DNA from: Pirellula staleyi DSM 6068
Lineage (GTDB): Bacteria; Planctomycetota; Planctomycetia; Pirellulales; Pirellulaceae
DNA: 32,000 nucleotides
Reading direction: 5' to 3'
Assembly: GCA_000025185.1 (NCBI GenBank)
Contig: CP001848.1
Location: forward strand, 5,790,001-5,822,000
Shown here: positions 11,916-32,000 of the stretch, piece by piece
Layout of the letters: every line of letters begins with the position of its first letter
How positions within the stretch are numbered: position 1 is the first letter of the stretch
Notes under the pieces: model-generated
Told to the model about the DNA's origin: nothing
The model's database searches: none
The model's input: only the letters and a program-made list of their open reading frames with translations
Translations under genes and position numbers: made by a program

Positions 11916-12285
11916 GTCGATTAACCTTGCAACATAGCCCCATACAAGCCATACGAAGCTGCCCGGCTTTCACAAGGTAAAACCACTGAGGGAATCGGCG
12001 ACCCGATGGAAATTGACACATGCAGTGGATTAGTCCATGCGTATGCCGGAAGAATTGTGTTGTTGGCCATTTTCCACGCCTCTTATATTTACTATGGACT
12101 GACACCTGGACGTTAATTCCTTAGCTGCTCAGGACTCGCCAGTGCGTCACCACAAACTTTCGCTGCCTAGGTTGTCTTCAGGCTGGCACAAGGTATCTTG
12201 AGCCTACGATGACGCCCCCCACACATGAGCAAATGGCCAACTTGCCCCTTGGCCGCTTCTTCAGCCATCTTCGGAATAACCAAAA

Positions 12286-14088: not shown

Positions 14089-14109
14089 TGGCGAACTTGA
14101 TTGTCAATA

Positions 14110-15330
14110 CTACACAACACCACGGTTCCGTTTTGCGACAGATACTATAGCACGTTCAGCACCCCGAAACACTGGGTTTGCATGCCACACAACGGTTCCA
14201 GCTTCAAAACTGATGTTATCAATATTGTCAAGCATCCAATCGCACGCGGTGATGGCAATAATTCTTGCAAGTGGTGCTCCAAGGCAATAATGCACACCCC
14301 ACCCAAAACCCAGATGGCCCGACACATCTCTTTTAACGTCCATTGTCCCAGGCGATGAAAATGCATTTTCGTCACGATTTCCACTACCGAACAATAGAAC
14401 GACATTGTTGCCCTGAGGAATGATTGTTCCAGACAACAGGGAATCACGTGTGGCTTGCCTTGCTGACATTTGAATAGGTGACTCTAATCTGGCAGTCTCC
14501 TCGATAGCATTCGGTAACAATGCTCTCTCGTCCTGCAGCAATGAGTACTGCGACTTGTTGCTACTAAAGAGTAACATTGCATTGAACAAAAGGTCTGTGG
14601 TTGTTTGAAGCCCAGCGCTAACCACCCCGACAACATTGGAGACAATCTCCGTCTCACTAAGTCCTCCGCCTGAAGCTCTGTGAAATATCCATTCACCAAG
14701 TATCGAATCTCGCGGAACTACACCATTGTGACGATGAATTAGCGGTGTCAAGTATTCGTCAACCTTCTGTGCCGCATCTACCGCGCAAATTAGACGCTGA
14801 TCGAGCGGAACGAATGAGAATCCGAGAAACTCATAAATATCACTCGTCCATTGGCGAAGCTTACTAAAGTCTGCGGGGGGGAGTCCGAGCACTTGTGCGA
14901 ACACGTTTGTTGACAGCTTGGTGCAAAAACATTCAACTGCGTTCCATGAATCATTTAGGTCGATGTGGTCGACAACCTTCTTAAGCTCGGATATCACTAC
15001 ACTCTGAGCCATTCGCATCCGGGCAGGCAGGAATGCAGCACCAAGAGCTGTCTTCAGTCTTCGTCTACGATCACCATCTGTAAATAAAAGTCGATGGCCA
15101 AGGAGTCGAAACAGACTAGCAGCGCTTTCGCGTACTGAGGAATCCAATTGGTTGTAGTAGTGAGTTAATCGGTTGGACGCGAAATCTTCAGACGCAAGTA
15201 CCGTGCGAATGTCGTCATATCGGGCAACAAGCCAATACCCCATCTCGTCGTTATAGGCGATACCTGGCGTCGCTCTCAGTTGCGAGTACAACGCATAACG
15301 ATCGATTGCAAGTGCGTGTAAAATGGACAT
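14110..15330 (-). CDS. Cytochrome P450
   Basis: 406 aa. The ExxR motif is EETARLE and the heme-binding loop is FGWGVHYCLGAPLAR. Its ATG at 15330 lies 2 nt after the stop of the upstream 1358-aa gene (TAA 15335-15333). Confidence 0.9.
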   Translation of the reverse strand: MSILHALAIDRYALYSQLRATPGIAYNDEMGYWLVARYDDIRTVLASEDFASNRLTHYYNQLDSSVRESAASLFRLLGHRLLFTDGDRRRRLKTALGAAFLPARMRMAQSVVISELKKVVDHIDLNDSWNAVECFCTKLSTNVFAQVLGLPPADFSKLRQWTSDIYEFLGFSFVPLDQRLICAVDAAQKVDEYLTPLIHRHNGVVPRDSILGEWIFHRASGGGLSETEIVSNVVGVVSAGLQTTTDLLFNAMLLFSSNKSQYSLLQDERALLPNAIEETARLESPIQMSARQATRDSLLSGTIIPQGNNVVLLFGSGNRDENAFSSPGTMDVKRDVSGHLGFGWGVHYCLGAPLARIIAITACDWMLDNIDNISFEAGTVVWHANPVFRGAERAIVSVAKRNRGVV

Positions 15331-15332
15331 GG

Positions 15333-18300
15333 TTAGTCGCCTTGGACGACTTTACTAGGAGTAGCGCGACAATGTGAAATGTCACGACATTGTGTGAGTA
15401 TATCGATTAGCTTTTTAACTCCATACGCCTTAATCCGAGAGAATACAGCTGAGCCCTCGGACAACAACTCAATAAGCTTCGGACGAACAAACTCTGCATC
15501 GCCTTTGCTATAAACTGCCACTGACAATGCATACAAATAGTGAGCGAATGTGATTTCACGATGAACCTCGTCGATCGCGCTGTTCTGAATTTCAATGAAT
15601 GCGCGCTGTAAGGTTCGGTTCATTGGTGAGATGTTCGTTCTTCCATGCTCCTTTTGACACATCAGAGCGACAACGAATGGATCTGGTGCCTTACCAATAG
15701 CTGGCCAGAGAGATGGATACGGAATATCACCCTCGGCATTGAGCTTCTTCAAGTAGCACCATGCCACACTTTTTACAATCGCTGATATTTCGGCTCCCGC
15801 TGGGATATTCTCCCCCTTGATCCAATCCTGAAAGCGAGTGATGACTAGATTGCGATAGAAGTTGTCGTCATTCCGTAGTGCGTTTCGCCCTACGCCAGTC
15901 GCAAGAACCAATTGGGTAATGCCAGTCAGTGGGGTAGCAGATGTGAACAATGCATCGAGTGCGGGACCGTCAAATCGAATGTTTGCGATGCTACACATTG
16001 CCAAGAAGTTTCCAAGCACATACGGAGCTGTCGAAGCGGCCTCCATGAACGTTGCGAGTGTTTCGAGACTGACGGTAAACTCCTTGAGTCGTTCCCCAGC
16101 CATGCGGAACATAAGCTCGGTGCACGCCCCAAACGACAACTCATCAGGCTGGCTCCCTCGTGTGCAGCTCGCCAAGTAGAGTGCGGCCAATTGTTGCACC
16201 CAGTTGTCATGTGGAATTCGGTAAGTACGGCCGCGATACTCTGGCTCGCCAGGAATAGGATCATCTCCAAGTCGGGCGAAGACAGTCCTGTTAAGCAATG
16301 ACCTAAGGATGGAATCGTCAGCAAACAGGGGGAGCAACCGGGAGAGACGTGCGCGCTGAGACCGCACCTCCGGCGATTCAACGCCAGTCGGCGTATGTGA
16401 CCAGGCCTGGACGCGGGCAATCGCTTGAGACTGAATGTTGCGAAAGGACTGGCTACCTGGGTTGCTGCGAAAGAACTCCCAAGCCACAACAGAGCCCATG
16501 TCCCTCCACTGTTCTTCTGAGATCGCGGGAAAGGATTCGTTCAACCTTGAATCCCGTATCAACCATGAAAATGCTTCGTCGTAGATCGCTGTGACGGACT
16601 GCATTTGTTCATCTGGTATCGATTCAATATGAGGTCCGAGAATGGGCAGTATCAACGGTGATCGCACAAGTGGCTGTAGGGCCGGAGGCACTCGCTGCAA
16701 CTCTGATCTCAGGCGAGGATAGACGGTAAAAGCCTCTTCTTCGTTCGGCGCGCGAACAGTAAACCGCATCTGAGCCGAAGCAAGAGACTCACATTCGGGC
16801 AAGGTGGATCGAACGAAACTCACTAGGCGTGTCGCATTATTCAGCCCTGCTCCAGCAGGGTGCAGAACAACGCTCTGTATTACCCGCCTGATATCCGCCA
16901 CTTCAATCACGTTATGGTGACGGTCCAAAAACTCATCGACGGACTCAAGAAGCAGCAAACACTGTCCGTTATGCATCCAACGATAAACCCATTCGATCGA
17001 AATAGTGATGGGTGGTAGTCCGAATCGTTCTTTACTCTGATTCACTAGCAAGGACGCCATCTCGCACCAGGATCGAATGAGAAGATCCCACGCATGATTT
17101 GCATTCGCCTTAGGGCCGGAAAAGAGCGTCGCAACGTCTGTTGACGATATGTTCAACTGAGGTAGCAGCAGAAACATTGGCAAATGTTCTGGTTCAGTTG
17201 ACAATTGGCAGTATCGCAGGCACACGTCGCGGGCAAAGAAGCGAGCTAATACTGACTTTCCAACGTTTGCCTCGCCCTTCACTACCGCAATTGCCGGGCC
17301 ATTGCTGGCTTGTCGGGCAAATGCATTAAGCGTACTGAGTACTGCTACCTGTGGTCCGTCTTTACCCTGATTGTCCACTCCAAAAGGCTGAACACATCGG
17401 AAAGAAACCAGGAAGTCGTCCGCGCGACAAAGGGTCTCCCATGCAACGGCCAATGCAACTCCATCAAGCCAGCCCGAGAGGTGCCGTCGCAGGTGACTCT
17501 TCACGATATCGAAGTATGACTTGTTGACCTGCCGTATCGACGTGTGAGTCCGGCGAAAAGTGGCCGTTTCGGCATCCGTCCTCACCCAGAGTGTCTTGCC
17601 GTCCACTTCGCTCCGGTCTGCATAGTCTGTGACATGCGGCGCAATGACATTATCTGCCGCCGCAAGGTACTCAATTGCCAACGGGCGCGGCAGTCGAACC
17701 GCATCAAGGTCATTGATCAAGGAGACATACCGTTCCTCCAGTTTCCGAACATAGTCCCCGTGGTACTCCAATTGCCGGACAATCCGGTTATAACCGAAGT
17801 TCATGCCAAGCACGTTCAGCGAACGTAAGAGCGGCCAAAGCACCCACTCATAGACTCCGCCCCAGAAACGTGTCTTCCATTGATCACCACCAAAGTGGGG
17901 CACATCAAAATTGATGATTTGCCGCACAGCGAGAACTGCCAATCTCATGTCGCGGACAGGGGTCAATTCATCGTCGCTACGCCGCCCGGAAAGTTGACGT
18001 CGAAGCGAGATCTGAGAGTGCAACGCCTCTTCGTCAACGTCATTGCAAAGCCACTCCTTGACGACAAGTCCACCTGCGCTATGCGCGAGGACCAGGAGGT
18101 GCTGGTACCGGTCGAGTTCGGGCTTTATCAGGCTATGCAGTTGCCTGCCAGCCGCCGACAAGTCTGCCTCTTCAGTTAGCCCCGCCGGATAATTGAACAG
18201 CAGCGCATCGCATTCCAGCTTTAGGTGTTGTTGCACGGACAGATGGAGTTCGTCCCACGTTAAGCAATTGCTCCGAAAGCCATGCACCATGATCATCAAC

Positions 18301-19409
18301 AGGTCGGCGCGGTACCGTGGGCTATCCTGATTAGGGTAGTACCACCAGCCGTCCACTCCTGCGGATCGGGTGCATCCTGGTGGTGCGCCTGGAGTAGCCG
18401 TCCGTTCCGGTCTCTCTGGCTTCTCGTCAACATTTCCTACTCGGCTTTCCTTTCGGCTACTTCGAGTCGCACGAGGTAACTTCGGGAGATTGAGAGTGCC
18501 ATTCGTTGTTGCCGAGATGTGACGGGATATTGCGGGGAAGAACACACCTTGATTAGCATCGACCTCAGCTCCGCAATGCAGTGCAAGAAGTCGACCGTCC
18601 CGTTGAATACAGGGAGATCCTGAGGACCCGCCTTCCGTATCGACTGCATAGAGAACCCGATTCTGGTCTTGCAGCACGTAGCGACTCGCGATGGGCCCAT
18701 CGGCAATCTCAACGGGACGGCCATCTGGGCATTGGATTATGCATGCATAGTCGCATACATCGAGGTTTATCGACAGTGAGTCGTCGACCGCGAACCACCC
18801 GCGAACATCTCCGATGGGAACGGATAAGCGTACCAGCGCGTAGTCTAGTTCGTTTACTACACTGAATGAAACAAGGGCTTCTACTGCTGCCGGCAGAACA
18901 ACCTCACCATCTTCCTCACGAACAGAATGCTCCTTGAAGTCGAAGCGAAAAGCTATGCGGTGGTCGTCACGAAGTGTGCCATCGTCGATCTGTGATCTTA
19001 GTACGTGATAGTTGGTGATGATTAAATCGGAACCGACGAGAAACCCACTGCCAATCGCAGATCCGTCAATTTCGACTCGACAGACCTGAGGAATTCCTTT
19101 TTGGTAGATGGAACCGGGAATGAATCGATTCCGTTTGGTGAGCCGATTTTGCAGAACGTTACGGTATGCGCCCTTTGCCTCCGCCCGCAATACTTCAAGC
19201 TTTCCCGCGTGTTTGGTCAGGAGTCGCGATACCACCCAGACTTCGCCAACCAGCCCTTGGGCCTGCGCTCGCTGAAGGATGTGTGTTCCATCACAGGGTG
19301 AAACGACCTCGCCAAAAACGTACTCAGATAGGTGTCGCAGTTGATGATCTTCAAGTGTCTCATCAATTGCTACAATCAACTTGGACACGAAATTGTGTGA
19401 GCTGGTCAC
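15333..19409 (-). CDS. STAND (NACHT-type) NTPase fused to an N-terminal helical domain, a trypsin-like serine protease and an alpha/beta-hydrolase (esterase/lipase-like) domain
   Basis: 1358 aa, with a GTG start overlapping the upstream stop (GTGA at 19406-19409). Residues 1-95 form a helical domain. Residues about 100-300 (nt about 18510-19112) are a trypsin-like fold with H in ITNYHVL, D in LDYALV and S in GGSSGSP. Residues about 365-640 (nt about 17490-18317) are an alpha/beta hydrolase with MVHGF and the nucleophile elbow AHSAG. Residues about 695-900 (nt about 16710-17327) are a P-loop NTPase with Walker A GEANVGKS and NACHT-like Walker B LLLLESVDE. The C-terminal region of about 450 aa is helical. 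Confidence 0.85.
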   Translation of the reverse strand: MTSSHNFVSKLIVAIDETLEDHQLRHLSEYVFGEVVSPCDGTHILQRAQAQGLVGEVWVVSRLLTKHAGKLEVLRAEAKGAYRNVLQNRLTKRNRFIPGSIYQKGIPQVCRVEIDGSAIGSGFLVGSDLIITNYHVLRSQIDDGTLRDDHRIAFRFDFKEHSVREEDGEVVLPAAVEALVSFSVVNELDYALVRLSVPIGDVRGWFAVDDSLSINLDVCDYACIIQCPDGRPVEIADGPIASRYVLQDQNRVLYAVDTEGGSSGSPCIQRDGRLLALHCGAEVDANQGVFFPAISRHISATTNGTLNLPKLPRATRSSRKESRVGNVDEKPERPERTATPGAPPGCTRSAGVDGWWYYPNQDSPRYRADLLMIMVHGFRSNCLTWDELHLSVQQHLKLECDALLFNYPAGLTEEADLSAAGRQLHSLIKPELDRYQHLLVLAHSAGGLVVKEWLCNDVDEEALHSQISLRRQLSGRRSDDELTPVRDMRLAVLAVRQIINFDVPHFGGDQWKTRFWGGVYEWVLWPLLRSLNVLGMNFGYNRIVRQLEYHGDYVRKLEERYVSLINDLDAVRLPRPLAIEYLAAADNVIAPHVTDYADRSEVDGKTLWVRTDAETATFRRTHTSIRQVNKSYFDIVKSHLRRHLSGWLDGVALAVAWETLCRADDFLVSFRCVQPFGVDNQGKDGPQVAVLSTLNAFARQASNGPAIAVVKGEANVGKSVLARFFARDVCLRYCQLSTEPEHLPMFLLLPQLNISSTDVATLFSGPKANANHAWDLLIRSWCEMASLLVNQSKERFGLPPITISIEWVYRWMHNGQCLLLLESVDEFLDRHHNVIEVADIRRVIQSVVLHPAGAGLNNATRLVSFVRSTLPECESLASAQMRFTVRAPNEEEAFTVYPRLRSELQRVPPALQPLVRSPLILPILGPHIESIPDEQMQSVTAIYDEAFSWLIRDSRLNESFPAISEEQWRDMGSVVAWEFFRSNPGSQSFRNIQSQAIARVQAWSHTPTGVESPEVRSQRARLSRLLPLFADDSILRSLLNRTVFARLGDDPIPGEPEYRGRTYRIPHDNWVQQLAALYLASCTRGSQPDELSFGACTELMFRMAGERLKEFTVSLETLATFMEAASTAPYVLGNFLAMCSIANIRFDGPALDALFTSATPLTGITQLVLATGVGRNALRNDDNFYRNLVITRFQDWIKGENIPAGAEISAIVKSVAWCYLKKLNAEGDIPYPSLWPAIGKAPDPFVVALMCQKEHGRTNISPMNRTLQRAFIEIQNSAIDEVHREITFAHYLYALSVAVYSKGDAEFVRPKLIELLSEGSAVFSRIKAYGVKKLIDILTQCRDISHCRATPSKVVQGD

Positions 19410-20464
19410 TGCAGACCTCGTTCAAAGGCGATGTGTGCGGCCAAGTCTGGATGATCAACTAGCGGATTCCTATTTCCTTGCGCGGCAAAGATCGCTTGAT
19501 TGCGGTGGCGTTCGTATTCACTGACTGGATGGTCCTGGTGCCATTGAAGGAGCGTCTCAAGTCGATCTGGAGTGTACTCAGAAGTCGACGAATTGATTTC
19601 ACCGGGGTAGCGGAGGAGAAAGTAGAGCGTTGCTCGGGCAACCGTTCCTTTTCCAGCGTTCGGTTCGAACTTGTTGGTCTCGCTCTTGCCGCAGTCAGAG
19701 CGGATGGCCTCGCCAAAGTTGGTGAAGTCGAAATAGGGGGTGTTGCTACGAAAACTGTTGCACTTGGATTCGCAAGCAAACAAATGATGCAAGTCTCCTC
19801 GCATCGGTTGTCGCTTGTTGAACCATGACTGCGGCACCACGTGTTCACAGTTGTAAGGAAGATCGGCTTCCAACGATTCCAAGAATGCTGCTTCCAAAAC
19901 TGGGTTTGCGGCTGCTTCCGATCTTCGGAAGCGATTCATACGCTCACGACGGAGTCGAGCAACTTCGAGGTCACGAGCAATGAACTCAGTCGGCTCAAAC
20001 ATCTGGGTCGAGTAGATGCTGCGAATTTTATGATTCGGCTGCAGGTCCACCCACGGGTACAGATGAATCGCTGGTTTGTATCCCAGTACCTTTATGTGCG
20101 TGTTACGCACGAGTTTGCTCAATGCATCAAATAGCTGCGAAGGGTTGAGAGTTGAAGAGATGCCGGAATAGTACGCTTTTCGTTCAGCGGCATCGGTGTT
20201 TTCGTCGTAATAGGGGCGACTGCGGGACTCTTCGAAGATCTTCCTCGCTGCTTCGAAGTCCGCATCTTCCGGTTCCTCGGATGAGCGACTGGCTGCAAGA
20301 GACGGCGTAGCTGGAGGAGGGCTGGATGTGACAACTGGCGTTGCGACGCTCGGCGCTCCCCCAGTAGGAGTTCCCAATGTGACTGACACGGTTAGCGGGA
20401 TCGTCCAGGTAGCCGTTCTTGAGGTTTGGCGAGCTGAATCTGAAGGAGGTTCGTTTGGAAACAT
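19406..20464 (-). CDS. Endonuclease I family nuclease with N-terminal junction motif and Pro/Ser/Thr-rich linker
   Basis: The Endonuclease I landmarks are NCEHVVPQSWF and GDLHHLF...NSFRSN. The track ORF starts at TTG 20485. I prefer ATG 20464 because AGGAG lies 7 nt upstream on the minus strand. No signal-peptide-like N-terminus is present. Confidence 0.85.
   Translation of the reverse strand: MFPNEPPSDSARQTSRTATWTIPLTVSVTLGTPTGGAPSVATPVVTSSPPPATPSLAASRSSEEPEDADFEAARKIFEESRSRPYYDENTDAAERKAYYSGISSTLNPSQLFDALSKLVRNTHIKVLGYKPAIHLYPWVDLQPNHKIRSIYSTQMFEPTEFIARDLEVARLRRERMNRFRRSEAAANPVLEAAFLESLEADLPYNCEHVVPQSWFNKRQPMRGDLHHLFACESKCNSFRSNTPYFDFTNFGEAIRSDCGKSETNKFEPNAGKGTVARATLYFLLRYPGEINSSTSEYTPDRLETLLQWHQDHPVSEYERHRNQAIFAAQGNRNPLVDHPDLAAHIAFERGLQ
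19446..20417. repeat. 972-bp perfect direct repeat, copy 1 (Endonuclease I module plus linker plus junction motif)
   Basis: A row-by-row comparison with 29851-30822 (offset 10405) found no mismatch. The ORF track also gives identical antisense ORF translations in both copies. Confidence 0.9.
20366..20416 (-). other. Junction motif instance TATWTIPLTVSVTLGTP (N-terminus of the stand-alone Endonuclease I)
   Basis: Read directly from the translation of ORF 19406-20485, residues 24-40. Confidence 0.8.
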
Positions 20465-20544
20465 TAAGCAACTCCTAGAAGACAATCAAAGAGTCCAATT
20501 TTGCAATCAACCGACATCCGACACCAACTACAAGTTTTAAGCGA

Positions 20545-23500
20545 TCACTTCATCGCCTCAAAGAATCGCTCTATATCTAGAATTCCATAACCAAAGCTGT
20601 TATTATGCCGTCCATTGTAATGCTTTGTAGTCTGCCAAAGTGCCTTCTTGACCTGAATCGCATTTGGCATTGATGTGCCATTCTTGCGATGAAATGAGAA
20701 GACGAGTGCAATGGCACCTGTCACGTGCGGGGCAGCCGTACTGGTTCCTGACATTGAAATACATTTAGAAAATGTCCCTGCTTTAGCGGCCTCAATTGAA
20801 GCACCAGGTGCAACTAGATCTGGCTTTGGATTAGCGGCATCATCTAGTCTTAGCGGCCCAAATGACGAAGAAGGCTCATTTTGTCCATTCTCGTCAATGC
20901 CGCCCACAGTGATTACGGAACGAGCAGTTCCAGGGATTGATAATGTGTATGATTGAGAGATGTTATTTAGAAATCTCGTCGGTCGCACGCCAGATCGCTC
21001 GAACCACGCATGTATCCATCCCTCAGATTTCACATCAATACCTCGCACTTTAAGTTTCCATTCTCCTCCAGCGATCCTTCCATATCGATTCGGACGCACG
21101 GTAATTTGAAGTCTGCTATCTCCATTGTCATGGTGACGGTAAGAAAGGTCAATTATTGACTTGGTTCCATCTTCGCAAGTTAGGACTTGTCGCGGTGAGT
21201 ATCTGGATACAATACGTGACTCCTGTCCGGTAGGACTAAAGAGAACAAACTCGCAGATATCAGAAGAATTAAACCAGAGTTCCAAATAGTCTTCTGGTCG
21301 GTGAATTTCTGGATCAGAAAGCCACTCCAGAAGATCGGTCCGACCGTTGGCGATCTGAATCAACGCGTGACCGCCAGCTGCACGTTCATTTCCTGCGGAC
21401 TTAACGATCGCAAGCCCTGGTGCTGTGCCACCGTTTGTGTAAGCATCGAATGCCGCCTCAAGTAGCGATGATCCATCATGAGCACCGGCATTCATTCCAA
21501 GGCTGACATTCACGACCAGCGGCAACCCAAACGAAGCAGCACGTGATTTGAGATACGCCAGGGCTTCCACATGACTTGCAGAGTATCCGAGGCTGTATGG
21601 ATCACTGGACATGACAGAAAGTTTTGGTATCACCAGAACGATTTTAGCGTCAGGTGCGACTCCACCTAGATAATCCCCTTCGGCCTTGCCAGCTGCAATG
21701 CTTGAAACATGAGTGCCATGACCGAGGTCGTCTCGCCCCAATTTTGCCGGAACCCTGCCTTCCCTCACGAAACTTCTAATCCGTTCCATCGAGAACACTG
21801 TTCCATAATTGAGAGAGGCCAAATTTGGAAACTCCTGAGCTGGGGTCCTCCCGTACTCGGCTCGCTGATCCCAAATTTCCAAGACGCGACTTTCGCCAGT
21901 TCCATCGCTGGTCAGGAATGCTTTATGTAAAATATCAATTCCAGTATCAATAATGCCACAAATACAATGACAACCAGTTTCGCCTGCCGGCGAGGAGTGA
22001 ACTGCCGGAGCTCCAACATACGATGACGAGCTCCATTCAAGTATCCCTGCAGGCCGACTGGCTTCAATGCTCAGTACATTCTGGTCCTGGTTCAGACTAC
22101 TTAGGGAGGCGGCTGTTCCAGAGCCTGTTATAATTGTTCCAATTACCGATCTCTCGATGAAACCGATCGGACAGGTCCAATCCTCAATTGAACGAACCTT
22201 TACCAACATTGGAAACACTGGATCATTCACTGTAGGCGATCCTCGCTCAGGTTCTGCACTCTTTAATGTAGTGGTGAGGCAGGACTCCTGTACCTGGATC
22301 ATATTTTCTTGTCTTCGCAAAGCCGCCTTTGATTCAAATGCCCCGATATGGTCCAAATATGTATCGTGCTTAACTGTCGTTAACTCCGGACTTACTACAG
22401 TTCGTGCTGGTTTACTCTTTGCCTCAGTCGGTTTCGGTAAGTTGCGATTGAGCGGGACTAGCTCGCTGGAACAAGTTTTCAAATCATTCTGGAGCGGACT
22501 CCCAATTGTGACTGACACGGTTAGCGGGATCGTCCAAGTAGCCGTTGATCCTGCGGATGCCTCTAACGGAGTTTCAGGAGCTACCGTGCTAGGGAAACTT
22601 ACCTGAACCGGGGGATTTCCAGGGACGGGCTCTGACTCATGCGGAATCGGCTGTGGGTTCAACACCACATCTCGCAGCGTTCCTTGCGTGGATGTCAGGC
22701 CTCCCAGTCCTGAAAGGTGCTCGCGAATCGCCACAACGCGACTCCCTTCGTTGGCGAATGCATCATGGCTCTTGCACCAGTCGAGAGTCGCCAATCCGAA
22801 GAGTAAGTCTTCGATTTCCTGAATTGAGACCTGATAGGGCTCCCAGTCTTCGGGCACTGCAAATTCCAGCGGAACCCCCGTAAGCTTTTGCTTGAGCACG
22901 AACCCAAACGCCTTCGGGCCGTCTTCGGTTTTTGCGATGACGATTTTCCAGAACTGTCGCGGAATTTGGATTTTTAGCGGGCCGCTGGAGTCTACGCCAT
23001 TGAATCGCTTATCGGAGGGATCGAGAACAGGACCTGCAAATACAATTACCCGCTCTGCAGTCGTTTCATCCTCGATTAGGTTTTCAAGATCGCCCCAGTT
23101 ATCGACCCCTTTAGATGCCTGATTAAACTTGGCTACCTGCGGAGAACAATTCGTTGTATGAAAAGTGTCACCGTTCCCCTTTTGCATGTCTAAGAAGGAG
23201 TCGCCCCATGCGACATCGTCGCGACGGACGAGATGCCCACGGTCGAAGGCCCCTTGGTCATTGATGAGGAACTTGTCGTGGAGTTGTTCCTCAAGCGGAA
23301 TACGATCGTCAGTGGCCCAGCTTTCAATGGTGTAGTCGTTATCAAATCCATTGAGTTCCTTCCGGGTCGGCTTGTGGCCATTCGACAGCATCTTGTCAGC
23401 TGATTGCCAGCTGACGTTTGCAGCAGAGAATAATGCCAGTCGACGCTGTTTATGCATGACGACAGAAAACTTGTGATACTTAAGCTCGTGGCTGCCATCG

Positions 23501-24945: not shown

Positions 24946-24992
24946 GGCATGGATCCTATAAATCCAGAGGGAAAGACGTGTGTGGAATTTGG

Positions 24993-26093
24993 TCAGAGAT
25001 TGGCTTTCGCGGCAATCTTGGCGATGTATTTGTCCAGACTATGATCGCTGACGCTCGGGATGAGTCCTTCGGTTTGCGGCATTGTGTGTGACTCAGTCAA
25101 GGGACGATTGACGCTGACAACTTCCTGACCAATCCGAGATTGCAGTCCCTGATACTCAGCTTCGGTGAGCATGGGCGGACCGGGTTTGAACGCCTCATCG
25201 TTTATCGATTCAGCGAATGCTCGCTCGGTGTTCGGCAAGGATTGGCCGTTCTGTAAACGACCTTGGGCATCAAAGTGTAGCAACCGACCGACATGCTCAT
25301 AGCCAGGAGGGACACGTGGCACGATGTCATCGTCGTTAACGAACCGGAAGAACTTTCCGGAGTAGTTTTGCGAGAAGAACATTCGGAAAGAGCCACGCCC
25401 GACAGCCGGTTGCCCAAATGTGACACCCCAGGAAGCAGGCATGAAGTGCTGCCACTCTGCTGCCATTACGGTTGCGAGTGCTCCACCCAGGCTGTGGCCA
25501 GTTAGGATGAGCGTTTGCCCGGCAATTCCCGAAAGCGCCGACCTCAACCGCGACTCCACAGCCTGAAACGCGCCAAGAAATCCCCTGTGCGTAACTCCGT
25601 ACTCGCGCGTTCGTCCCGCAACATTGATGTTTCGGAGCCAATCGCCACGACTCTCAGTTCCGCGAAACGCGACCAAAGCTATCTCGGGAGTCAGCGCGAC
25701 AAAGCATTGTGTTTCATCAACATCGATGAACTCACAAGAACTGAATCCCCAAGACCTTGCCGACCCAAGGCACGTCGACTTAACGCTCTGCTCGGACTCG
25801 TAAGCCAACTTGCTGGCGAGCGCCAACGATAAAGCCGCTTTCCAGGTGAAGGTCGACTTGGAAAGAGATGAAAGATCAAACGATGCTGTGTCAATCGCTG
25901 GCGGTGACGTCGAGATCTGGCCTTCTTGAAGGCCCAATGGAGTATTCACAGGAGCCGACACTCCCGTGCCGACCAGCATCGGCCGACCGATCTCAACGGT
26001 AACGCGCAAGTCGAGTGGAAACGTTGCTATCGATTCAGGCACGACGCAATGTTCTTTGTCTTGCCTAGTGCATTCTCGCAAGTTGTTCGACAT
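24993..26093 (-). CDS. Class-3 (fungal-type) lipase family protein with N-terminal junction motif
   Basis: The lipase_3 landmarks are the nucleophile elbow GHSLGGALA, NDDDIVPRVP (Asp) and SDHSLDKY (His). The track ORF starts at GTG 26174, which would overlap the upstream gene by 35 nt. ATG 26093 has GGAG 8 nt upstream and is my preferred start. Confidence 0.85.
   Translation of the reverse strand: MSNNLRECTRQDKEHCVVPESIATFPLDLRVTVEIGRPMLVGTGVSAPVNTPLGLQEGQISTSPPAIDTASFDLSSLSKSTFTWKAALSLALASKLAYESEQSVKSTCLGSARSWGFSSCEFIDVDETQCFVALTPEIALVAFRGTESRGDWLRNINVAGRTREYGVTHRGFLGAFQAVESRLRSALSGIAGQTLILTGHSLGGALATVMAAEWQHFMPASWGVTFGQPAVGRGSFRMFFSQNYSGKFFRFVNDDDIVPRVPPGYEHVGRLLHFDAQGRLQNGQSLPNTERAFAESINDEAFKPGPPMLTEAEYQGLQSRIGQEVVSVNRPLTESHTMPQTEGLIPSVSDHSLDKYIAKIAAKANL
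25980..26030 (-). other. Divergent junction motif instance IATFPLDLRVTVEIGRP (N-terminus of the lipase)
   Basis: Residues 49-65 of ORF 24993-26174. It aligns without gaps to the other copies, keeping A-T-aromatic, the alternating hydrophobic positions and the terminal G-x-P. Confidence 0.6.
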
Positions 26094-26139
26094 TCTCGTC
26101 GCTCCAAGTGTTACAGAAGACTCATCTACGGAAATTGCT

Positions 26140-29100
26140 CTACTCCGTGCTGGATCGGTTCCAAAAGTGCTCACAGAACCCCTGATTCTGTGTTTGGCTC
26201 AATAGGTCGAAGTACAGTTTCGTCGGGTCAAACCCAATCATTCCCTCGCGAACAATTCTGAGCAATACAAATGCAAGCTGGCAGAAATAGCTCACTTTGT
26301 GATCTTTGCTCCAACTCTTGCTGAATCGGCGGATCGACTCCCAAAGGCACCCCTCCGCTTCCTTCATCTCCCCACTTGCAATGTGCACCATAGATAGAGC
26401 ACAGAAATACTCAGCCGCGACCTCCAGCGAGTACGTTGCTAATAATGGGAAATGAACAAGCACTACTGACTTGGTACGCATGTCTTTTAGGCAATCAAGT
26501 CTCTCGTGTTGCCAAGCCAACCTGATTCGACGAGCTGCCGCCCGCACTCCGAGTGAGCCCTTTTTAAGCTGTCGTTCCAACTCTACCTGGAAGGACTTTG
26601 GTGACCATTGGCTATACTTCCACCAATCAGCGCGACATGCCAGCGTTCTCGGATCGTCAATTTCAACGGTTTTCTCCAGAATGTCGAGTGCGCGTCTAAG
26701 ATCAAAACGATTCTGACAGAAGATGTCGTCTAACTGGTGCTGTGAAACGGCGTCGGAAGAAGCACGAGCTTCCGCTACGTGCCGAAGAACCTCGGTAGCA
26801 GACTGGTGCAAGATTACAGCAGCTTCGGGCAAGAATGGTGCAAGGTCGGGGCTGTCCGCGATTTCCTGGATGGCCGTATCGCGGTTTTGACAACGCTTTA
26901 AACATTCAACAAGCTGAGGTTCCAGTTTGGGTAGATTCCTAAACGCTTCAACCTCAAAGAGGGCGGCGGGCAAACTCTGCAAGAGTTCCTCGGCAGATTT
27001 CTCGCCTTGATTCATCCGGAACATCAGATAATTATCAATGACATTTTTAGTGGCTCCAGACCAGTGAGCATTGTCGCCCGAAAACTTTGCCAATGTTTCG
27101 GTAGCGCTGGCATAGAGTCGTTCGGCTTCCTCCGGCTCGAGTGTTTCCAGCGCCTTCGCAAGTTTCGCGGCGGCTACAGCGTATTGCGGATGCAAGGTGT
27201 CGTAAACTTTCCGAGTCACTTCCAGTACCTCTCGTCGCAAGTCTAACGCCTCAGCACCTCGCTTCTGTTCCTCGATTGCGGATGCCAGAAGGCTCGTCAG
27301 CACACTTACTCGCTGGAGGTCGTCTGGAAAAAGCTTCAAAATGGTCTTTAGGCTTTCTCGTATTTGCTTCTCGGCTTCTGCAGGTCGTTTCAGATCAATG
27401 AGCTCTTGGCCGAGGCACATCAGAGTAACCGCAACTTCGTGGCTCTCACGGCCATGAGCTTGCTCCAAAGCGATCAGCGTTCGCTCCAAAATCGGCATCC
27501 AATTGCACTGCTTGGCGAGCCCACTTTCATCATCAACGCCCCAGTACTTCGCAAACTGGTAAATTTGCAATTGCTGTTCATGGGCTTGCGGCGAGTCAGC
27601 ACCAAACTTATCAGATTGAATGCTCCAGGCACGAAGGTATAGCTGCGCGGCGTCCCTGTTACGTGACGTGTCCCGAAGCAATTCGGCAAGACGCGACAAT
27701 GTCTCGGCTACTTCAGACGAGTTCGGTCCAAATTCCTGTTCACGGCGAGCTAACGCTTCTCGGAGAAGCGGTTCTGCTACCTTCATCTCACCAATAGCTG
27801 TGAGGTAGGTTCCATAAGAAGTGAGTAATCGTGAAAGTGGTCCAGGATTCGGAAACTTGGGAAGATGCGAAAGAACTGATTCGACATGTGGACGAAGTCT
27901 CCTGCATAGCGGCCACTCAGAAACGTATCTGGAATTCGCTGGAAACGATTTGGCAAGCATTCCAACTGCCAAGCGAAACGTTTCTGAAAGATGATCTGGC
28001 GAGTCGTGTTGGGCTCGCAAACGTGTGAATTCCTGAACCAAAGAATGAACGCTTATAGCTTTAGTCTCGTTTGCTTCAAAAGCAAACGAACATCTCTTGA
28101 GAGCCTTTAGCGCGACTCCGACATCGAGACCCGAAGATGCCAGGCAATCCAGGTTTTCAAGTTGAATGACGACCCGTCGATCAAGCTCAGTCGAGGCACA
28201 CCACGAAAGAACCTCCAAAAGTACCTTGGCACTATCAGCAAGTGTCTCCCAGCTTGTGTCCCAAGCAGTTGCAAGAGTTCGATGCCAGTCGTCACGAATG
28301 CCATGCATGCCCCAACCTCGAACCGACTGGTTGCGCTCACGGTAGAATCGCAGGCACTCGTCCAGAGGCTTGGCCTGACCGTCGATCCAATTTGCGACGA
28401 TTTTCAGTGCCAGCGGCAAGCCACCGAGGAGCCGACTGAATTCTGCCGCAGAGGCATCATCATCTTGCAACGACTTCGTTCGGCGCGGGGTGGCATCAAG
28501 TATAAATTGTGCTGTCTCCGACTCGCTCAAACCTCGCAATGCAATTGGCGTGGTAGGTGTGCTCCAGAAAGACTGGTCAAGACGAGAGGTAATCAGGAAA
28601 CGCCTATTTTCCCCGAATTTCCGAACGAACACACACACGGCGTCGCGAGATTGGATTGTGTCTGCACCGTCGATCACAAGCAACCAATTCGAGTTGTTTC
28701 GCAGCCATCTCTCTACAACTTCCTTCCTTCGCAATTCCGACGCCGAGGGATCGCAATCACATTCGCTAGAACTGATTTCGTTGCCGACAAAGGCCGCCAA
28801 TCCGGCTTGAATTGAGCTGTCAAGTGACACATTGACGTACAGAAGTTTGTCATAATCACACTTGTTGTCGCAACCAAATCGTCGAGCTACCGTGGATTTG
28901 CCGACACCTCCGATCCCGGTTAATACAACTGCCGCCGATTTCACAAAGTGATTGCTAATCTGCTCAAACACTTCTTTTTGAAGGACGAAGTGCTCCTCGC
29001 GAACCGTATCTAAAAACCAATCGCTCATCACAGTCGAGTCTTCCGACCTCAGAGCAACTGGTTCATAACCCAACTCCTCCAGGCGAAGCAAAATGCTCTT

Positions 29101-29814
29101 GAACGACACTGCCTTAAGTTGCAGCCTCTCGTCATATCGTGCTCGATGAAGGCCACACAGCGAATAATTCTTGCCTTCCTTGAGAAAAACTCCACCGCCA
29201 CTCATACCCGCTCTTGAACCAGTACCATCGAACGTCACTAGGCCGTTGGCGGTCTTCTCGACCTTCTGAAGGTTGTAACCTGGCTTCGGGCGGACGTTAT
29301 TGTCATTTCCATTGACATAGCCACTGAAGCCTTTGTGGCCTTCTGGATACCCAGAGATCACGCATTCGTTGCCTGCGGCCAATTCCTGATTAATCCAGTT
29401 TCCGGCGATCAACTTCTTATCTTGGCAGTTGCGCCACGCCCTATCGTCGAAACTCAAGAGTGCCCAGTCCGCATTTTCAACATCGGCGATCGGCTGATCG
29501 TAAAAGTGTGAACCGGCATAGGTGGTCAGCGGTTTCACCGCCGTTTCCAACTTGACTGGAATTCCCTTGATTGGGTCGTAACCATACCCGGCTGGCGCAA
29601 CCCAAATATTTTCGTGTTGGGGGCCAAGCTGCTGGGGGGTACTCCCCAAACGCCGAATTACATGGGCACATGTAAGAATGAATGTCTCTTCAGTGCCGGG
29701 CTGTCCCTTCTTTCTTAATCGGATACCAACCCCGGAACCTTGTCCAATCTCGCCTTTCGATGATGCTTGGATGTACCACACAGTACTGCTCGGGTAAGGA
29801 ATCATCTCGCTCAT
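26140..29814 (-). CDS. STAND NTPase (NB-ARC/AP-ATPase type) with N-terminal trypsin-like protease and C-terminal TPR repeats
   Basis: 1224 aa, with an ATG overlapping the upstream stop (ATGA at 29811-29814). Residues 1-250 (nt about 29065-29814) are the protease: H in LTCAHV, D in ADWALL, S in GMSGGGV. Residues about 275-560 (nt about 28135-28992) are the NB-ARC: Walker A GIGGVGKST, Walker B LLVIDGAD, RFLITSR, and the GLPL motif GGLPLAL. Residues about 640-900 are TPR-like repeats (e.g. AETLSRLAELLRDTSRNRDAAQLYLRAW). A helical tail follows. Confidence 0.9.
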   Translation of the reverse strand: MSEMIPYPSSTVWYIQASSKGEIGQGSGVGIRLRKKGQPGTEETFILTCAHVIRRLGSTPQQLGPQHENIWVAPAGYGYDPIKGIPVKLETAVKPLTTYAGSHFYDQPIADVENADWALLSFDDRAWRNCQDKKLIAGNWINQELAAGNECVISGYPEGHKGFSGYVNGNDNNVRPKPGYNLQKVEKTANGLVTFDGTGSRAGMSGGGVFLKEGKNYSLCGLHRARYDERLQLKAVSFKSILLRLEELGYEPVALRSEDSTVMSDWFLDTVREEHFVLQKEVFEQISNHFVKSAAVVLTGIGGVGKSTVARRFGCDNKCDYDKLLYVNVSLDSSIQAGLAAFVGNEISSSECDCDPSASELRRKEVVERWLRNNSNWLLVIDGADTIQSRDAVCVFVRKFGENRRFLITSRLDQSFWSTPTTPIALRGLSESETAQFILDATPRRTKSLQDDDASAAEFSRLLGGLPLALKIVANWIDGQAKPLDECLRFYRERNQSVRGWGMHGIRDDWHRTLATAWDTSWETLADSAKVLLEVLSWCASTELDRRVVIQLENLDCLASSGLDVGVALKALKRCSFAFEANETKAISVHSLVQEFTRLRAQHDSPDHLSETFRLAVGMLAKSFPANSRYVSEWPLCRRLRPHVESVLSHLPKFPNPGPLSRLLTSYGTYLTAIGEMKVAEPLLREALARREQEFGPNSSEVAETLSRLAELLRDTSRNRDAAQLYLRAWSIQSDKFGADSPQAHEQQLQIYQFAKYWGVDDESGLAKQCNWMPILERTLIALEQAHGRESHEVAVTLMCLGQELIDLKRPAEAEKQIRESLKTILKLFPDDLQRVSVLTSLLASAIEEQKRGAEALDLRREVLEVTRKVYDTLHPQYAVAAAKLAKALETLEPEEAERLYASATETLAKFSGDNAHWSGATKNVIDNYLMFRMNQGEKSAEELLQSLPAALFEVEAFRNLPKLEPQLVECLKRCQNRDTAIQEIADSPDLAPFLPEAAVILHQSATEVLRHVAEARASSDAVSQHQLDDIFCQNRFDLRRALDILEKTVEIDDPRTLACRADWWKYSQWSPKSFQVELERQLKKGSLGVRAAARRIRLAWQHERLDCLKDMRTKSVVLVHFPLLATYSLEVAAEYFCALSMVHIASGEMKEAEGCLWESIRRFSKSWSKDHKVSYFCQLAFVLLRIVREGMIGFDPTKLYFDLLSQTQNQGFCEHFWNRSSTE

Positions 29815-31940
29815 CCCAGTCCCTTTTCAAAATCAAGATGCTGGGCCCAATCTGGATGATCAACTAGCGGATTCCTATTTCCTTGCGCGGCAAAGATCGC
29901 TTGATTGCGGTGGCGTTCGTATTCACTGACTGGATGGTCCTGGTGCCATTGAAGGAGCGTCTCAAGTCGATCTGGAGTGTACTCAGAAGTCGACGAATTG
30001 ATTTCACCGGGGTAGCGGAGGAGAAAGTAGAGCGTTGCTCGGGCAACCGTTCCTTTTCCAGCGTTCGGTTCGAACTTGTTGGTCTCGCTCTTGCCGCAGT
30101 CAGAGCGGATGGCCTCGCCAAAGTTGGTGAAGTCGAAATAGGGGGTGTTGCTACGAAAACTGTTGCACTTGGATTCGCAAGCAAACAAATGATGCAAGTC
30201 TCCTCGCATCGGTTGTCGCTTGTTGAACCATGACTGCGGCACCACGTGTTCACAGTTGTAAGGAAGATCGGCTTCCAACGATTCCAAGAATGCTGCTTCC
30301 AAAACTGGGTTTGCGGCTGCTTCCGATCTTCGGAAGCGATTCATACGCTCACGACGGAGTCGAGCAACTTCGAGGTCACGAGCAATGAACTCAGTCGGCT
30401 CAAACATCTGGGTCGAGTAGATGCTGCGAATTTTATGATTCGGCTGCAGGTCCACCCACGGGTACAGATGAATCGCTGGTTTGTATCCCAGTACCTTTAT
30501 GTGCGTGTTACGCACGAGTTTGCTCAATGCATCAAATAGCTGCGAAGGGTTGAGAGTTGAAGAGATGCCGGAATAGTACGCTTTTCGTTCAGCGGCATCG
30601 GTGTTTTCGTCGTAATAGGGGCGACTGCGGGACTCTTCGAAGATCTTCCTCGCTGCTTCGAAGTCCGCATCTTCCGGTTCCTCGGATGAGCGACTGGCTG
30701 CAAGAGACGGCGTAGCTGGAGGAGGGCTGGATGTGACAACTGGCGTTGCGACGCTCGGCGCTCCCCCAGTAGGAGTTCCCAATGTGACTGACACGGTTAG
30801 CGGGATCGTCCAGGTAGCCGTTGATCCGGCGGCGGCGACCGGCGAAGTTGCAGGAACTACCGTGCTAGGAACACTGACCTGAACCGGGCGCTGTCCAGGG
30901 ACGGGCTCCGACTCTGGGTGAATCGGCTGTGGGTTCAACGCCACGTCTCGCAATGTCCCTTGCGTGGACGTCAGGCCTCCCAGTCCTGAAAGGTGCTCCC
31001 GGATTGCCACAACGCGAATCCCTTCGTTGGCGATCCAGTGAATTCGCTCGTCCCCCATCTCTTCTCGCCAAAGCAGGCCGTCAGTCGTCAGGAGGCGTCC
31101 AAGGTTGTCCCTCTCAGGAAAACCCGAGTGATGTAGAGCCACCACCTCCCATTGATCGTTGAAGACTGGAGCACCGGATGAGCCCGGAGTTGTGTCGGTC
31201 TCGTAGTACAAAAACCTGTCTTCGGTGTTGGGGAATCGCAATACGCGATTTTCTCGCAACGCAATCTGCTTCAGGTCTCCGCCTGGGTGTTGAATCACCG
31301 TGACGCTTTCACCAGCCAGGATTTCCCCTTCGCTAGCGGAAAGTGGATTGAACCCAAAAGTCGACAATTGAGTACTTGAGTCCCCTTCGGCGGCTTCAGA
31401 CACCGTGACAACCGTCAGGTCGAGTTCTTCTTCTGGACTCGTCGTAAAGAAAAGGTCGGGACGCAAACGAAATCGCGCGACGGGCAGTTCGCGGCCATCT
31501 AGCCCAAGTTGAAAATTGAACTCCACGACCGCGTTTCCGGCCCGGGCAGCGGAATCCAAGACATGACTGTTCGTCATGAAGAGGGACGGAGAGATCATCG
31601 AGCCTGTCCCGTAGCCCAACACGGATCCCGAGCTCGACCGAATGACCACTCGGGCTACAGCACGACCGGCCATTCTGCCCGCGTCGAGATACCGAACCGA
31701 CAGTAGTTCGTTTCTGCCGATGATGCGTTCAAGGCCAATTCGACGCGAGTCGAATTTCCCCTCCAGTGCTGGACCCGAGCCCGTCGCACTGCGGATGATG
31801 TCGGTAGAAAATCCCAGCCTTCGAAGTCGCCGTTCTATAGCGTCTGACGGATTACCTCTCAAAAGCTCGAACTGAGTTCGCGACTCAAGTCGTGCTCGGA
31901 ACGATTCATGGCGAATAGCAGGAGCGGCCTCTAGTGGCAC
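29811..31940 (-). CDS. Trypsin-like serine protease fused to Endonuclease I family nuclease (possibly 5'-truncated by the window)
   Basis: 709 aa from GTG 31940. The frame stays open to position 32000, so the true start may lie outside the window. Residues about 75-305 (nt about 31026-31718) are the protease: GTGSMISPSLFMTNSHVL, DLTVVTV, TPGSSGAPVF. The junction motif and a P/S/T linker follow, then Endonuclease I (nt about 29814-30668): NCEHVVPQSWF, GDLHHLF...NSFRSN. Confidence 0.85.
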   Translation of the reverse strand: MPLEAAPAIRHESFRARLESRTQFELLRGNPSDAIERRLRRLGFSTDIIRSATGSGPALEGKFDSRRIGLERIIGRNELLSVRYLDAGRMAGRAVARVVIRSSSGSVLGYGTGSMISPSLFMTNSHVLDSAARAGNAVVEFNFQLGLDGRELPVARFRLRPDLFFTTSPEEELDLTVVTVSEAAEGDSSTQLSTFGFNPLSASEGEILAGESVTVIQHPGGDLKQIALRENRVLRFPNTEDRFLYYETDTTPGSSGAPVFNDQWEVVALHHSGFPERDNLGRLLTTDGLLWREEMGDERIHWIANEGIRVVAIREHLSGLGGLTSTQGTLRDVALNPQPIHPESEPVPGQRPVQVSVPSTVVPATSPVAAAGSTATWTIPLTVSVTLGTPTGGAPSVATPVVTSSPPPATPSLAASRSSEEPEDADFEAARKIFEESRSRPYYDENTDAAERKAYYSGISSTLNPSQLFDALSKLVRNTHIKVLGYKPAIHLYPWVDLQPNHKIRSIYSTQMFEPTEFIARDLEVARLRRERMNRFRRSEAAANPVLEAAFLESLEADLPYNCEHVVPQSWFNKRQPMRGDLHHLFACESKCNSFRSNTPYFDFTNFGEAIRSDCGKSETNKFEPNAGKGTVARATLYFLLRYPGEINSSTSEYTPDRLETLLQWHQDHPVSEYERHRNQAIFAAQGNRNPLVDHPDWAQHLDFEKGLG
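29851..30822. repeat. 972-bp perfect direct repeat, copy 2
   Basis: It is identical to 19446-20417, and similarity falls off sharply on both flanks. Confidence 0.9.
30771..30821 (-). other. Junction motif instance TATWTIPLTVSVTLGTP (between the trypsin-like and Endonuclease I modules)
   Basis: Residues 374-390 of the 709-aa ORF. Confidence 0.8.
30771..31031. repeat. 261-bp diverged repeat, copy B, located directly after the trypsin-like domain
   Basis: It encodes ANEGIRVVAIREHLSGLGGLTSTQGTLRDVALNPQPIHPESEPVPGQRPVQVSVPSTVVPATSPVAAAGSTATWTIPLTVSVTLGTP. Its 3' end overlaps the 972-bp repeat. Confidence 0.85.
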
Positions 31941-32000
31941 CGTCGACTCTGTCCGAGTTGCCGACTCACCAAAAACTCGGCGAAAACGGTCAGCCGTGGC

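Follow-up and report, generated by a model that had tools for sequence, protein, structure and literature searches.

Conflict systems in which a trypsin-like peptidase is joined to a nuclease of the NucA/Endonuclease_NS family were described as System 3 by Kaur, Burroughs, Iyer and Aravind (eLife 2020; PMC7159879), and this kind of system has been defined mostly by computation. That paper predicts a proteolytic cascade releasing the nuclease, draws mainly on 45 organisms, mostly alphaproteobacteria, and includes a trypsin-NucA-S8 polypeptide as well as, for certain operons, a STAND protein with a Death-like domain (bDLD2) and a trypsin. In this work, a cluster of seven genes from Pirellula staleyi DSM 6068 (Psta_4458-4464) was analyzed, which is located on the minus strand at 14110-31940 of a stretch of 32,000 nucleotides (CP001848.1, positions 5,790,001 to 5,822,000), referred to as the window. 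Judged by sequence homology, the cluster belongs to this NucA-peptidase conflict system (System 3) as a variant from a planctomycete, and it is related to CARD-NLR and LypABC.

The CARD-NLR anti-phage systems of Pedobacter and Lysobacter defend against phage, and the death effector of such a system can be a gasdermin, an endonuclease or a phospholipase, in many cases as a fusion with a trypsin (Wein et al., bioRxiv 2023, PMC10312443; Nature 2025). In the LypABC system of Caulobacter, LypC consists of a trypsin, a flexible linker and a NucA-type endonuclease, and lysis requires the protease serine of LypC together with the LypA protease (CARD-trypsin) and the LypB NLR ATPase (Banks et al., Nat Microbiol 2026; PMC13236601). 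LypC is the only experimentally studied member of the trypsin-NucA branch. Site-specific proteolytic activation is also described for other protease-effector modules, in which latent nucleases, alpha/beta hydrolases or pore formers are activated by site-specific cleavage and sensors exchange the zymogen modules among each other (Evans et al., bioRxiv 2025, PMC12642450; Tuck et al., Science 2025, PMC12799240). For the related systems, action by proteolysis is established by experiment (PMC10312443, PMC13236601, PMC12642450, PMC12799240). In recent work, death effectors gated by proteases have come to be seen as a major principle of bacterial immunity.

With a probability of roughly 0.6, the P. 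staleyi cluster encodes a variant of the trypsin-NucA (CARD-NLR-like) proteolytic cell-suicide system, made up of three tandem modules and working as a cascade of sensor, protease, tag and effector. New in this locus are the three-module layout, a family-wide linker tag, the exchange of effector cassettes at this tag, unusual sensor fusions and extra effectors. The locus and the tag provide a concrete hypothesis for the protease target and for the use of many effectors per system.

Gene Content of the Cluster

The seven tightly packed minus-strand genes, numbered g1 to g7 by increasing position, were confirmed by open reading frame (ORF) calls at 29811-31940 (g7), 26140-29814 (g6), 24993-26174 (g5), 20545-24945 (g4), 19406-20485 (g3), 15333-19409 (g2) and 14110-15330 (g1). 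The ATGA overlap at 29811-29814, the GTGA overlap at 19406-19409 and the 2-nt gap at 15331-15332, all reported in a preliminary description made from the sequence alone, were verified on the sequence. The intergenic gaps measure 2-80 nt and thus leave no space for immunity ORFs; neither small ORFs of the immunity type, as already noted before, nor secretion-system genes were found in the window. A terminator scan of the window yielded 18 terminator-like sites against 19.0 expected, which corresponds to chance frequency, and none of them lies inside an intergenic gap of the cluster, in agreement with the preliminary description. Promoter-like sites are likewise present at chance level.

Four genes carry tagged effector domains. 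g7 (29811..31940; Psta_4464 by position) codes for an N-terminal region, a Trypsin_2 domain (aa 111-269; H125, D175, S255), a disordered linker containing the tag, and an Endonuclease I (EndoI) domain (Pfam Endonuclease_1; aa 556-696). Its start is uncertain because the frame continues without a stop codon to base 32000, the window end. g5 (Psta_4462) is a stand-alone Lipase_3 effector (Pfam) with the motif GHSLGG and an N-terminal variant of the tag; the likely true start is the ATG at 26093, which has a GGAG-type site upstream (24993..26093). g4 (Psta_4461; 20545..24945) combines Trypsin_2 (2.1e-15; S311), the tag, a NucA/Endonuclease_NS domain (3e-34; DRGH at aa 568) and a g7-like linker with a second tag, followed by a Csp-like subtilase (Peptidase_S8, 1.9e-32), which has its D/H/S residues and a CspBA-like match in NCBIfam. 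The approximately 140 residues between the second tag and the catalytic Asp of the S8 domain might form a pro-domain. g3 (Psta_4460) is a stand-alone effector composed of the tag and Endonuclease I (Pfam Endonuclease_1), likely starting at the ATG at 20464, again with a GGAG-type site upstream (19406..20464).

The trypsins of the two remaining cluster proteases are fused to STAND modules. g6 (Psta_4463; 26140..29814) contains Trypsin_2 (aa 41-215; S205), NB-ARC and TPR (Pfam), with Walker A GIGGVGKS at aa 300 and an NCBIfam FxSxx_TPR match (3e-49), and is a candidate sensor and initiator protease. g2 (Psta_4459; 15333..19409) consists of a helical N-terminus, Trypsin_2 (S263), a DUF676-type alpha/beta hydrolase (AHSAGG), a NACHT-type NTPase and a helical C-terminal sensor. 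g1 (Psta_4458; 14110..15330) encodes a cytochrome P450 with an intact Cys-ligand loop (Pfam).

The domain order and catalytic motifs given in the preliminary description agree with the Pfam results and with a check of the catalytic signatures, which are all intact (four trypsin H/D/S sets, S8 D/H/S, DRGH, GHSLGG and AHSAGG); the Walker A/B pairs of both STAND proteins are complete. When all inter-domain segments were searched against Pfam up to an E-value of 5, no family was found for the tag or the N-terminal regions, and none of the seven proteins has a gasdermin family match in Pfam.

Comparison With Described Systems

The preliminary description had matched the cluster to no named system, which proved wrong: it is of the NucA-peptidase kind (PMC7159879). 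As in the System 3 description, a trypsin-like peptidase is fused to NucA/Endonuclease_NS and continued by S8 in one polypeptide (g4), several trypsin paralogues occur per operon (here four Trypsin_2 domains in g7, g6, g4 and g2), and a STAND protein carries a helical domain and a trypsin at its N-terminus (g2). g4 is a clear homologue of canonical System 3 members, with 38-44% identity and E-values of about 1e-150.

Compared with the same description, the P. staleyi cluster differs in its planctomycete host and in its additional effectors, two Endonuclease I copies and a Lipase_3. Its g2 STAND module is encoded in one chain with trypsin and alpha/beta hydrolase and belongs to another NACHT family, whereas System 3 has an AAA_16-type partner with a gene of its own. 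The cluster also includes another STAND protein, of NB-ARC-TPR type (g6), and the bDLD2 domain is not demonstrable in g2. In the available part of the System 3 description (PMC7159879), no mention of the linker tag was found.

With CARD-NLR and LypABC, the cluster shares the logic of an NLR-like ATPase, one or more trypsin proteases and a death effector. LypC resembles the first two thirds of g4, and the alphaproteobacterial relatives of g4 are located in operons with bDLD2/CARD-trypsin and STAND genes, as in CARD-NLR systems. Death effectors are adjacent here as well, namely Endonuclease I twice, NucA, Lipase_3, S8 and the alpha/beta hydrolase, but they are many more than in CARD-NLR or LypABC. 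Unlike LypABC, P. staleyi has no recognizable LypA-type (CARD-trypsin-pseudoATPase) or LypB-type NLR gene; in their place, two other STAND proteins with directly fused trypsins are found, a hydrolase-NACHT fusion and an NB-ARC-TPR protein. The protease-alpha/beta-hydrolase module of Evans et al. is characterized by a hydrolase of the LcHydrolase family with two R|G cleavage sites. The effectors of the other zymogen modules are proteins of their own, gated by internal linkers, whereas most P. staleyi effectors are fused behind a protease via a common tag, and one tag serves several folds.

PADLOC recognized only generic protease and subtilase models. Its matches are confined to protease regions (LmuA-like, 1.4e-10; RT-Protease), and the g4 matches named 'subtilase' and 'nacht' cover protease domains only. 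No Avs model was assigned to g6, although its general layout is Avs-like.

Three Modules and Their Occurrence in Other Genomes

The arrangement of homologues in related loci (numbered with an L) suggests that the cluster is composed of three modules in tandem, each of two genes (g7+g6, g5+g4 and g3+g2), and is not a single machine of seven genes. The proposal of a protease-gated intracellular conflict system, made in the preliminary description, fits the comparative evidence in its principle and has to be revised in its organization. Each of the gene pairs occurs alone elsewhere.

For g7+g6, locus L093 contains a g7 homologue with 78% identity and, following it, a protein that shares 62% identity with g6 in the trypsin, while its C-terminal region shows no relation to the NB-ARC-TPR part. 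The cluster of L093 begins with the g7 homologue, and the genes upstream are divergent and unrelated. Full-length g7 homologues with 78-81% identity were found in metagenomes. In L088, L091 and L095, g7 homologues have no STAND neighbor. DDE transposases were observed beside g7 homologues at L093:14418-15188, following the g6-type trypsin gene, and at L095:3530-7553.

The g5+g4 pair, a lipase directly upstream of a trypsin-NucA gene, is found in L007 (Pirellula), L008 (Planctomycetaceae), L010 (Verrucomicrobium) and L076 (Bryobacteraceae). For g3+g2, only two full-length g2 homologues were detected in 5.8 billion proteins (L001 and L003), and both are located behind an effector. In L001, an EndoI remnant, called as an 83-aa gene, takes the place of g3 before the g2 homologue and is itself preceded by a trypsin-NucA gene, so that the order g4-g3-g2 is kept together. 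In L003, a trypsin-lipase gene and a remnant of a g7-type trypsin precede the g2 homologue; upstream of the trypsin-lipase gene there is an 83-aa ORF that matches no family (L003:360-611).

A protein search revealed 256 relatives of g4 at E<=1e-10. Their trypsin-NucA part is constant, and the domains downstream comprise S8, M12 astacin, S41, metallophosphatase, PLC, DUF1353, alpha/beta hydrolase and TIR; some relatives have extra upstream domains (Lipase_3 or STAND). In L004 (10001-15334; 77% identity to g4), an AAA_16/NPHP3_N STAND module is N-terminal to trypsin-tag-NucA in a single chain of 1777 aa. Scanning one genome per species, relatives were found in at least 575 species genomes of Planctomycetota, Acidobacteriota, Actinomycetota, Verrucomicrobiota, Pseudomonadota (Alphaproteobacteria) and others, which makes the trypsin-NucA family far wider than first reported. 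Distant members (~30% identity) are present on 114 plasmid records, mostly rhizobial (e.g., NZ_CP013578.1, 35635-37404), where they are annotated only as 'DNA/RNA non-specific endonuclease'.

A canonical operon of the order [trypsin-tag-NucA-X][trypsin, ~386 aa][bDLD2-trypsin, ~720 aa][STAND, ~1130 aa] occurs in Mesorhizobium, Roseibium, Labrenzia and related genomes (L005, L024, L028, L033 and L078). The Mesorhizobium amorphae protein P0045, which matches g4 with an E-value of 1.7e-154, belongs to an operon [tryp-NucA-S8][tryp][bDLD2-tryp][AAA_16 STAND], and a convergent trypsin-STAND-TPR gene adjoins the canonical operon of this species. The same set of parts, consisting of trypsin-NucA-S8, extra trypsins, a trypsin-STAND fusion and trypsin-STAND-TPR, recurs in other phyla. 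In other planctomycete loci, trypsin-NucA genes neighbor TIR-SLOG-CHAT (L009:15188-18922), nSTAND1-WD40 (L012:3257-6622) and FGE-sulfatase-domain proteins (L019:2356-6009), all of them characteristic components of other conflict systems in multicellular bacteria.

A Common Linker Tag Precedes the Effector Domains

Each effector domain of the cluster is preceded by an 18-residue linear motif, GxxT[WF]TIPLx[IV][TS][VI]xLG, designated as tag. In the window it has the form TWTIPLxVSVxxG or a variant of it and precedes four different effector folds. On the minus strand, the tag is found in g7 before EndoI at 30777..30818 (TATWTIPLTVSVTLG; 23.5 bits), in g4 between trypsin and NucA, its family-wide position, at 23704..23745 (TGTWTIPIQVSISIG), a second time in g4 before S8 at 22501..22542 (TATWTIPLTVSVTIG), and at the N-terminus of g3 at 20372..20413 (24.6 bits). 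The tag at the N-terminus of the g5 lipase at 25980..26024 (TFPLDLRVTVEIGRP) is divergent and scores only 3.7 bits with a hidden Markov model (HMM) of the tag; its position and pattern match those in the lipases of L007, L008, L010 and L076.

The 18-residue HMM was applied to ~5,900 ORFs of the fetched loci with a cut-off of at least 10 bits. Matches were obtained in 69 of 85 trypsin-NucA ORFs, always between both domains and across phyla. No unrelated ORF of this set was matched, the other matches being restricted to lipases and trypsins of the same loci, and the STAND proteins g2 and g6 do not contain the tag according to the HMM. In total, 79 distinct instances follow the pattern GGxxT[WF]TIPLx[IV][TS][VI]xLGxP, in which the Pro is invariant (79/79) and the Gly nearly so (76/79). 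Furthermore, all five stand-alone lipases adjoining trypsin-NucA genes, from three phyla, carry an N-terminal variant of the tag.

The structure of g4 was predicted with AlphaFold for aa 63-480 using an alignment of 55 sequences. The trypsin is modeled with a predicted local distance difference test (pLDDT) value above 90, and residues 330-378 including the tag have values below 50 and no secondary structure, and the idea of the tag as an ordered C-terminal extension of the trypsin fold was rejected on this ground. Since the tag region is both conserved and disordered, it is regarded as a conserved linear motif in a flexible linker. Because the folds that follow it are of four unrelated kinds, a common partner, namely a trypsin, is a more likely reader of the tag than the effectors are, and the tag probably marks the site where the proteases act. 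Somewhat short of even odds, and therefore tentative, is the further-reaching view that the tag is a universal, portable pro-effector signal, which would serve as a common recognition and cleavage site for any protease of the system and as a recombination joint. If so, this would apply to any tagged effector, fused or separately encoded, a single sensor-protease pair could set off a variable set of DNases, lipases and proteases, and the tag would correspond, inside the cell, to the junction motifs known from polymorphic toxins.

Duplication and Exchange of Effector Cassettes

Two repeats connect the effector genes of the cluster. The first one, of 979 bp, joins 19439..20417 in g3 with 29844-30822 in the 3' half of g7 at 99.8% identity, and g3 is, by this identity, a recent duplicate of the g7 3' half. 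The identity begins at the first tag codons, so that the g3 tag forms the 5' edge, and ends ~30 nt before the stop codons, where g3 and g7 each overlap their own downstream partner. The second repeat of 258 bp (22500..22757; partner 30777-31033, 86.8% identity) corresponds to the segment of g4 between NucA and S8; it consists of a g7-type trypsin tail and linker and ends at the second tag. In a relative of g4 in L001, trypsin-NucA is encoded without the 258-bp segment and without the S8 domain. The tag-coding DNA is 96-100% identical among three copies. Taking these alignments together, the breakpoints of the duplications coincide exactly with the tag, whose DNA is the recombination joint; effector cassettes have thus been duplicated and grafted there, and exchange of cassettes is the way in which the loci evolve.

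A decayed lipase cassette was detected on the minus strand at 11611..12070 with its own tag at 12002-12043 (WTNPLHVSISIG; 15.7 bits); it is 87.6% identical to 25665-25903. The stretch around this cassette, 2 kb away from the reported cluster, is poor in genes.

Polymorphic toxin loci such as CdiA and Rhs have a similar appearance, since a constant N-terminal part is combined with a variable C-terminal enzyme at a short junction motif, orphan cassettes lie nearby and recombination breakpoints are found at the junction. This swapping of C-terminal domains, together with the classically periplasmic or secreted nature of the EndoI and NucA families, would suit secreted digestive enzymes or toxins directed against other cells, with the proteases as maturation domains. 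Such a role is very improbable. None of the seven proteins has a hydrophobic N-terminus or a transmembrane-like segment, which corroborates the lack of signal peptides noted in the preliminary description and led to the rejection of the secreted-enzyme reading. Export or trafficking domains, immunity genes and secretion-system genes are missing, fusion or linkage connects the proteins with cytoplasmic STAND NTPases, and the family's neighbors are intracellular conflict proteins. The resemblance to polymorphic toxins is taken as an analogy of the evolutionary mechanism only.

Sensor Domains of g2 and the Adjacent P450 Gene

The NTPase of g2 was not directly detected by Pfam, NCBIfam or PDB sequence profiles, and its hydrolase gave a weak, DUF676-like Pfam match (E 0.0016-0.0077). 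An exhaustive HMMER search with aa 661-1358, the C-terminal 698 residues, retrieved 148 relatives from 1.84 billion representative proteins, which match across the whole unit of 650 residues. When g2 and 44 of these relatives were searched against Pfam, 38 of the 45 sequences matched NACHT, 33 AAA_16 and 17 nSTAND5. g2 is therefore, by transitive homology, a divergent NACHT-type STAND protein, and the NACHT assignment of the preliminary description is upheld by the matches of the family instead of a direct profile match. The Walker A motif is GEANVGKS at aa 712 (K718) and the Walker B motif LLLLESVDEF at aa 818. The N-termini of the relatives vary between kinase, DUF676 hydrolase, TIR, trypsin, EAD1, EAD11 and Mrr. 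To judge from these relatives, the hydrolase-NACHT fusion is typical of the family; in g2 it is preceded by two additional domains, a helical one and a trypsin.

The first 100 residues of g2 are predicted by AlphaFold as a six-helix bundle (pLDDT 81). The Pfam family bDLD2 (PF20707) is not matched by this N-terminus, and hhalign against bDLD2 sequences gave a probability of 11%. A Foldseek search against PDB returned nothing significant (E above 3); the match with the highest probability was the Lysobacter death-like domain 8srz (probability 0.28, TM-score 0.42-0.47, E >3).

The P450 gene g1 had been counted as a member of the cluster in the preliminary description. It is probably co-transcribed and adjoins the g2 homologue in L001, but it is absent from L003 and belongs to a conserved neighborhood of CMAS and acyltransferase lipid genes, beside which it lies. 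A function as a system component is unlikely, and g1 is probably a neighbor.

Proposed Mechanism and Alternative Explanations

Building on the observed architecture and homology, the conservation, position and disorder of the tag, the recombination breakpoints and the conserved gene pairs, a mechanism is proposed by analogy with CARD-NLR, LypABC and the protease-zymogen modules. Module 1 would consist of g7 (trypsin-tag-EndoI) with g6 (trypsin-NB-ARC-TPR), module 2 of g5 (tag-lipase) with g4 (trypsin-tag-NucA-tag-S8), and module 3 of g3 (tag-EndoI) with g2 (helical-trypsin-hydrolase-NACHT). The TPR of g6 and the helical C-terminus of g2 would sense an invader or a stress signal, and NTP-dependent oligomerization would bring the fused trypsins together and activate them by proximity. 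As initiators, these trypsins would switch on the executioners, namely the effector-fused trypsins of g7 and g4. The proteases would cut in or beside the tag within the disordered linkers and free EndoI, NucA and S8 as well as the stand-alone lipase and EndoI from their pro-forms. DNA, membrane and protein would then be degraded, and the cell would die before the invader spreads, while the tag-coding DNA would double as the joint for the exchange of effector cassettes. Analogy is the basis of the proposal for sensing, cascade order, tag cleavage and the outcome as suicide or defense alike, and tag cleavage is a weak point.

Several observations weigh against this mechanism. The AlphaFold model of g4 ends before NucA, so the tag may instead pack on the effector. 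In L007, a stand-alone trypsin (12320-13519) carries the tag at its C-terminal end, and the occurrence on both halves of split genes, at the end of the trypsin and at the start of the lipase, fits an adaptor or docking function equally well. The tag would in that case not be a cleavage site; as a beta-strand element pairing with itself or docking on the trypsin, it would gather tagged effectors and proteases in one complex, like the effector-associated domains (EADs) or amyloid-type motifs of NLR systems. The alternating hydrophobic and polar residues of the tag suit beta strands, its disorder in a monomer model is expected of an element that folds upon binding, and coupling by EADs is a principle described for these systems. 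An adaptor is nevertheless considered unlikely: without a tag in g2 and g6, it cannot link the sensors to the effectors directly, and two domains that are already joined would hardly seem to need a recruiting adaptor between them.

Regarding the sensors, g2 and g6 are not, by sequence comparison, orthologues of LypA- or LypB-type components. BLASTP of g2 against the LypB-like STAND protein of Mesorhizobium gave no significant similarity. In a phmmer screen of the related loci, neither the NB-ARC nor the TPR query from g6 gave a match, and with the g2 STAND query only the homologues of g2 itself were found, in three loci, and no LypB-like STAND ORF. The STAND proteins thus fall into groups other than the LypB clade, g2 into a hydrolase/kinase/TIR-NACHT family and g6 into an NB-ARC-TPR group. 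For the N-terminus of g2, a Death-like fold, as the model possibly suggests, is unproven. Finally, a recognizable STAND gene is located within 10 kb in only 15-17 of 80 related loci at the sensitivity of phmmer, so that the effector-fused trypsins may not need STAND sensors.

The latter point would also be expected if the cluster comprised three independent systems, brought side by side by local duplication and without cross-talk, in which the effector-fused trypsins are self-contained and fire without STAND proteins. The separate occurrence of each gene pair and the g7 homologues lacking a STAND neighbor are in line with this explanation, which is a serious one and yet clearly the less probable: the near-identical tags and the gene conversion between modules keep the substrates interchangeable, the genes overlap or lie close together in one direction without terminators, and L001 keeps g4, g3 and g2 together.

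Further points against the proposed cascade concern its outcome. In LypABC, the nuclease residues are dispensable for lysis, and the system works in releasing gene transfer agents (GTAs), not in defense (PMC13236601). A corresponding role of the cluster would be regulated lysis or DNA clearance for the release of a prophage or GTA, or developmental death in a rosette-forming planctomycete. Here LypABC, the closest studied relative, is relevant in that it is needed for GTA release and is located outside a defense island (PMC13236601), and Kaur et al. tie these systems to a multicellular habit (PMC7159879). The P. staleyi cluster, however, is located beside restriction-type and other defense-type genes, no phage or GTA genes were seen within the window, and the CARD-NLR systems of Pedobacter and Lysobacter protect against phage; a non-defensive role is accordingly rated as quite unlikely, and a defensive cell-suicide cascade is preferred.

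Genomic Neighborhood

The genes at the lower coordinates of the window fit a defense island. They include HsdR (98-2896, minus strand), with no HsdM or HsdS gene in view, a PD-(D/E)XK nuclease (4503-4997), a WYL-WCX regulator (6856-7962), which overlaps a peptidyl-arginine/agmatine deiminase-like gene (7959-8798) by 4 nt, and a Dam-type methyltransferase (8987-9883). No tRNA genes, which were looked for as a mobility signal, are present within the window. The G + C content is 0.48 at 14001-16000, covering the P450 gene and the 3' end of g2, and 0.51-0.56 elsewhere in the window. The segment 10725-11224 repeats, at 77% identity, the 3' part of the PAD_porph-like gene (repeat partner 8291-8827) and looks like a second pseudogene of the stretch at 10.5-12.2 kb.

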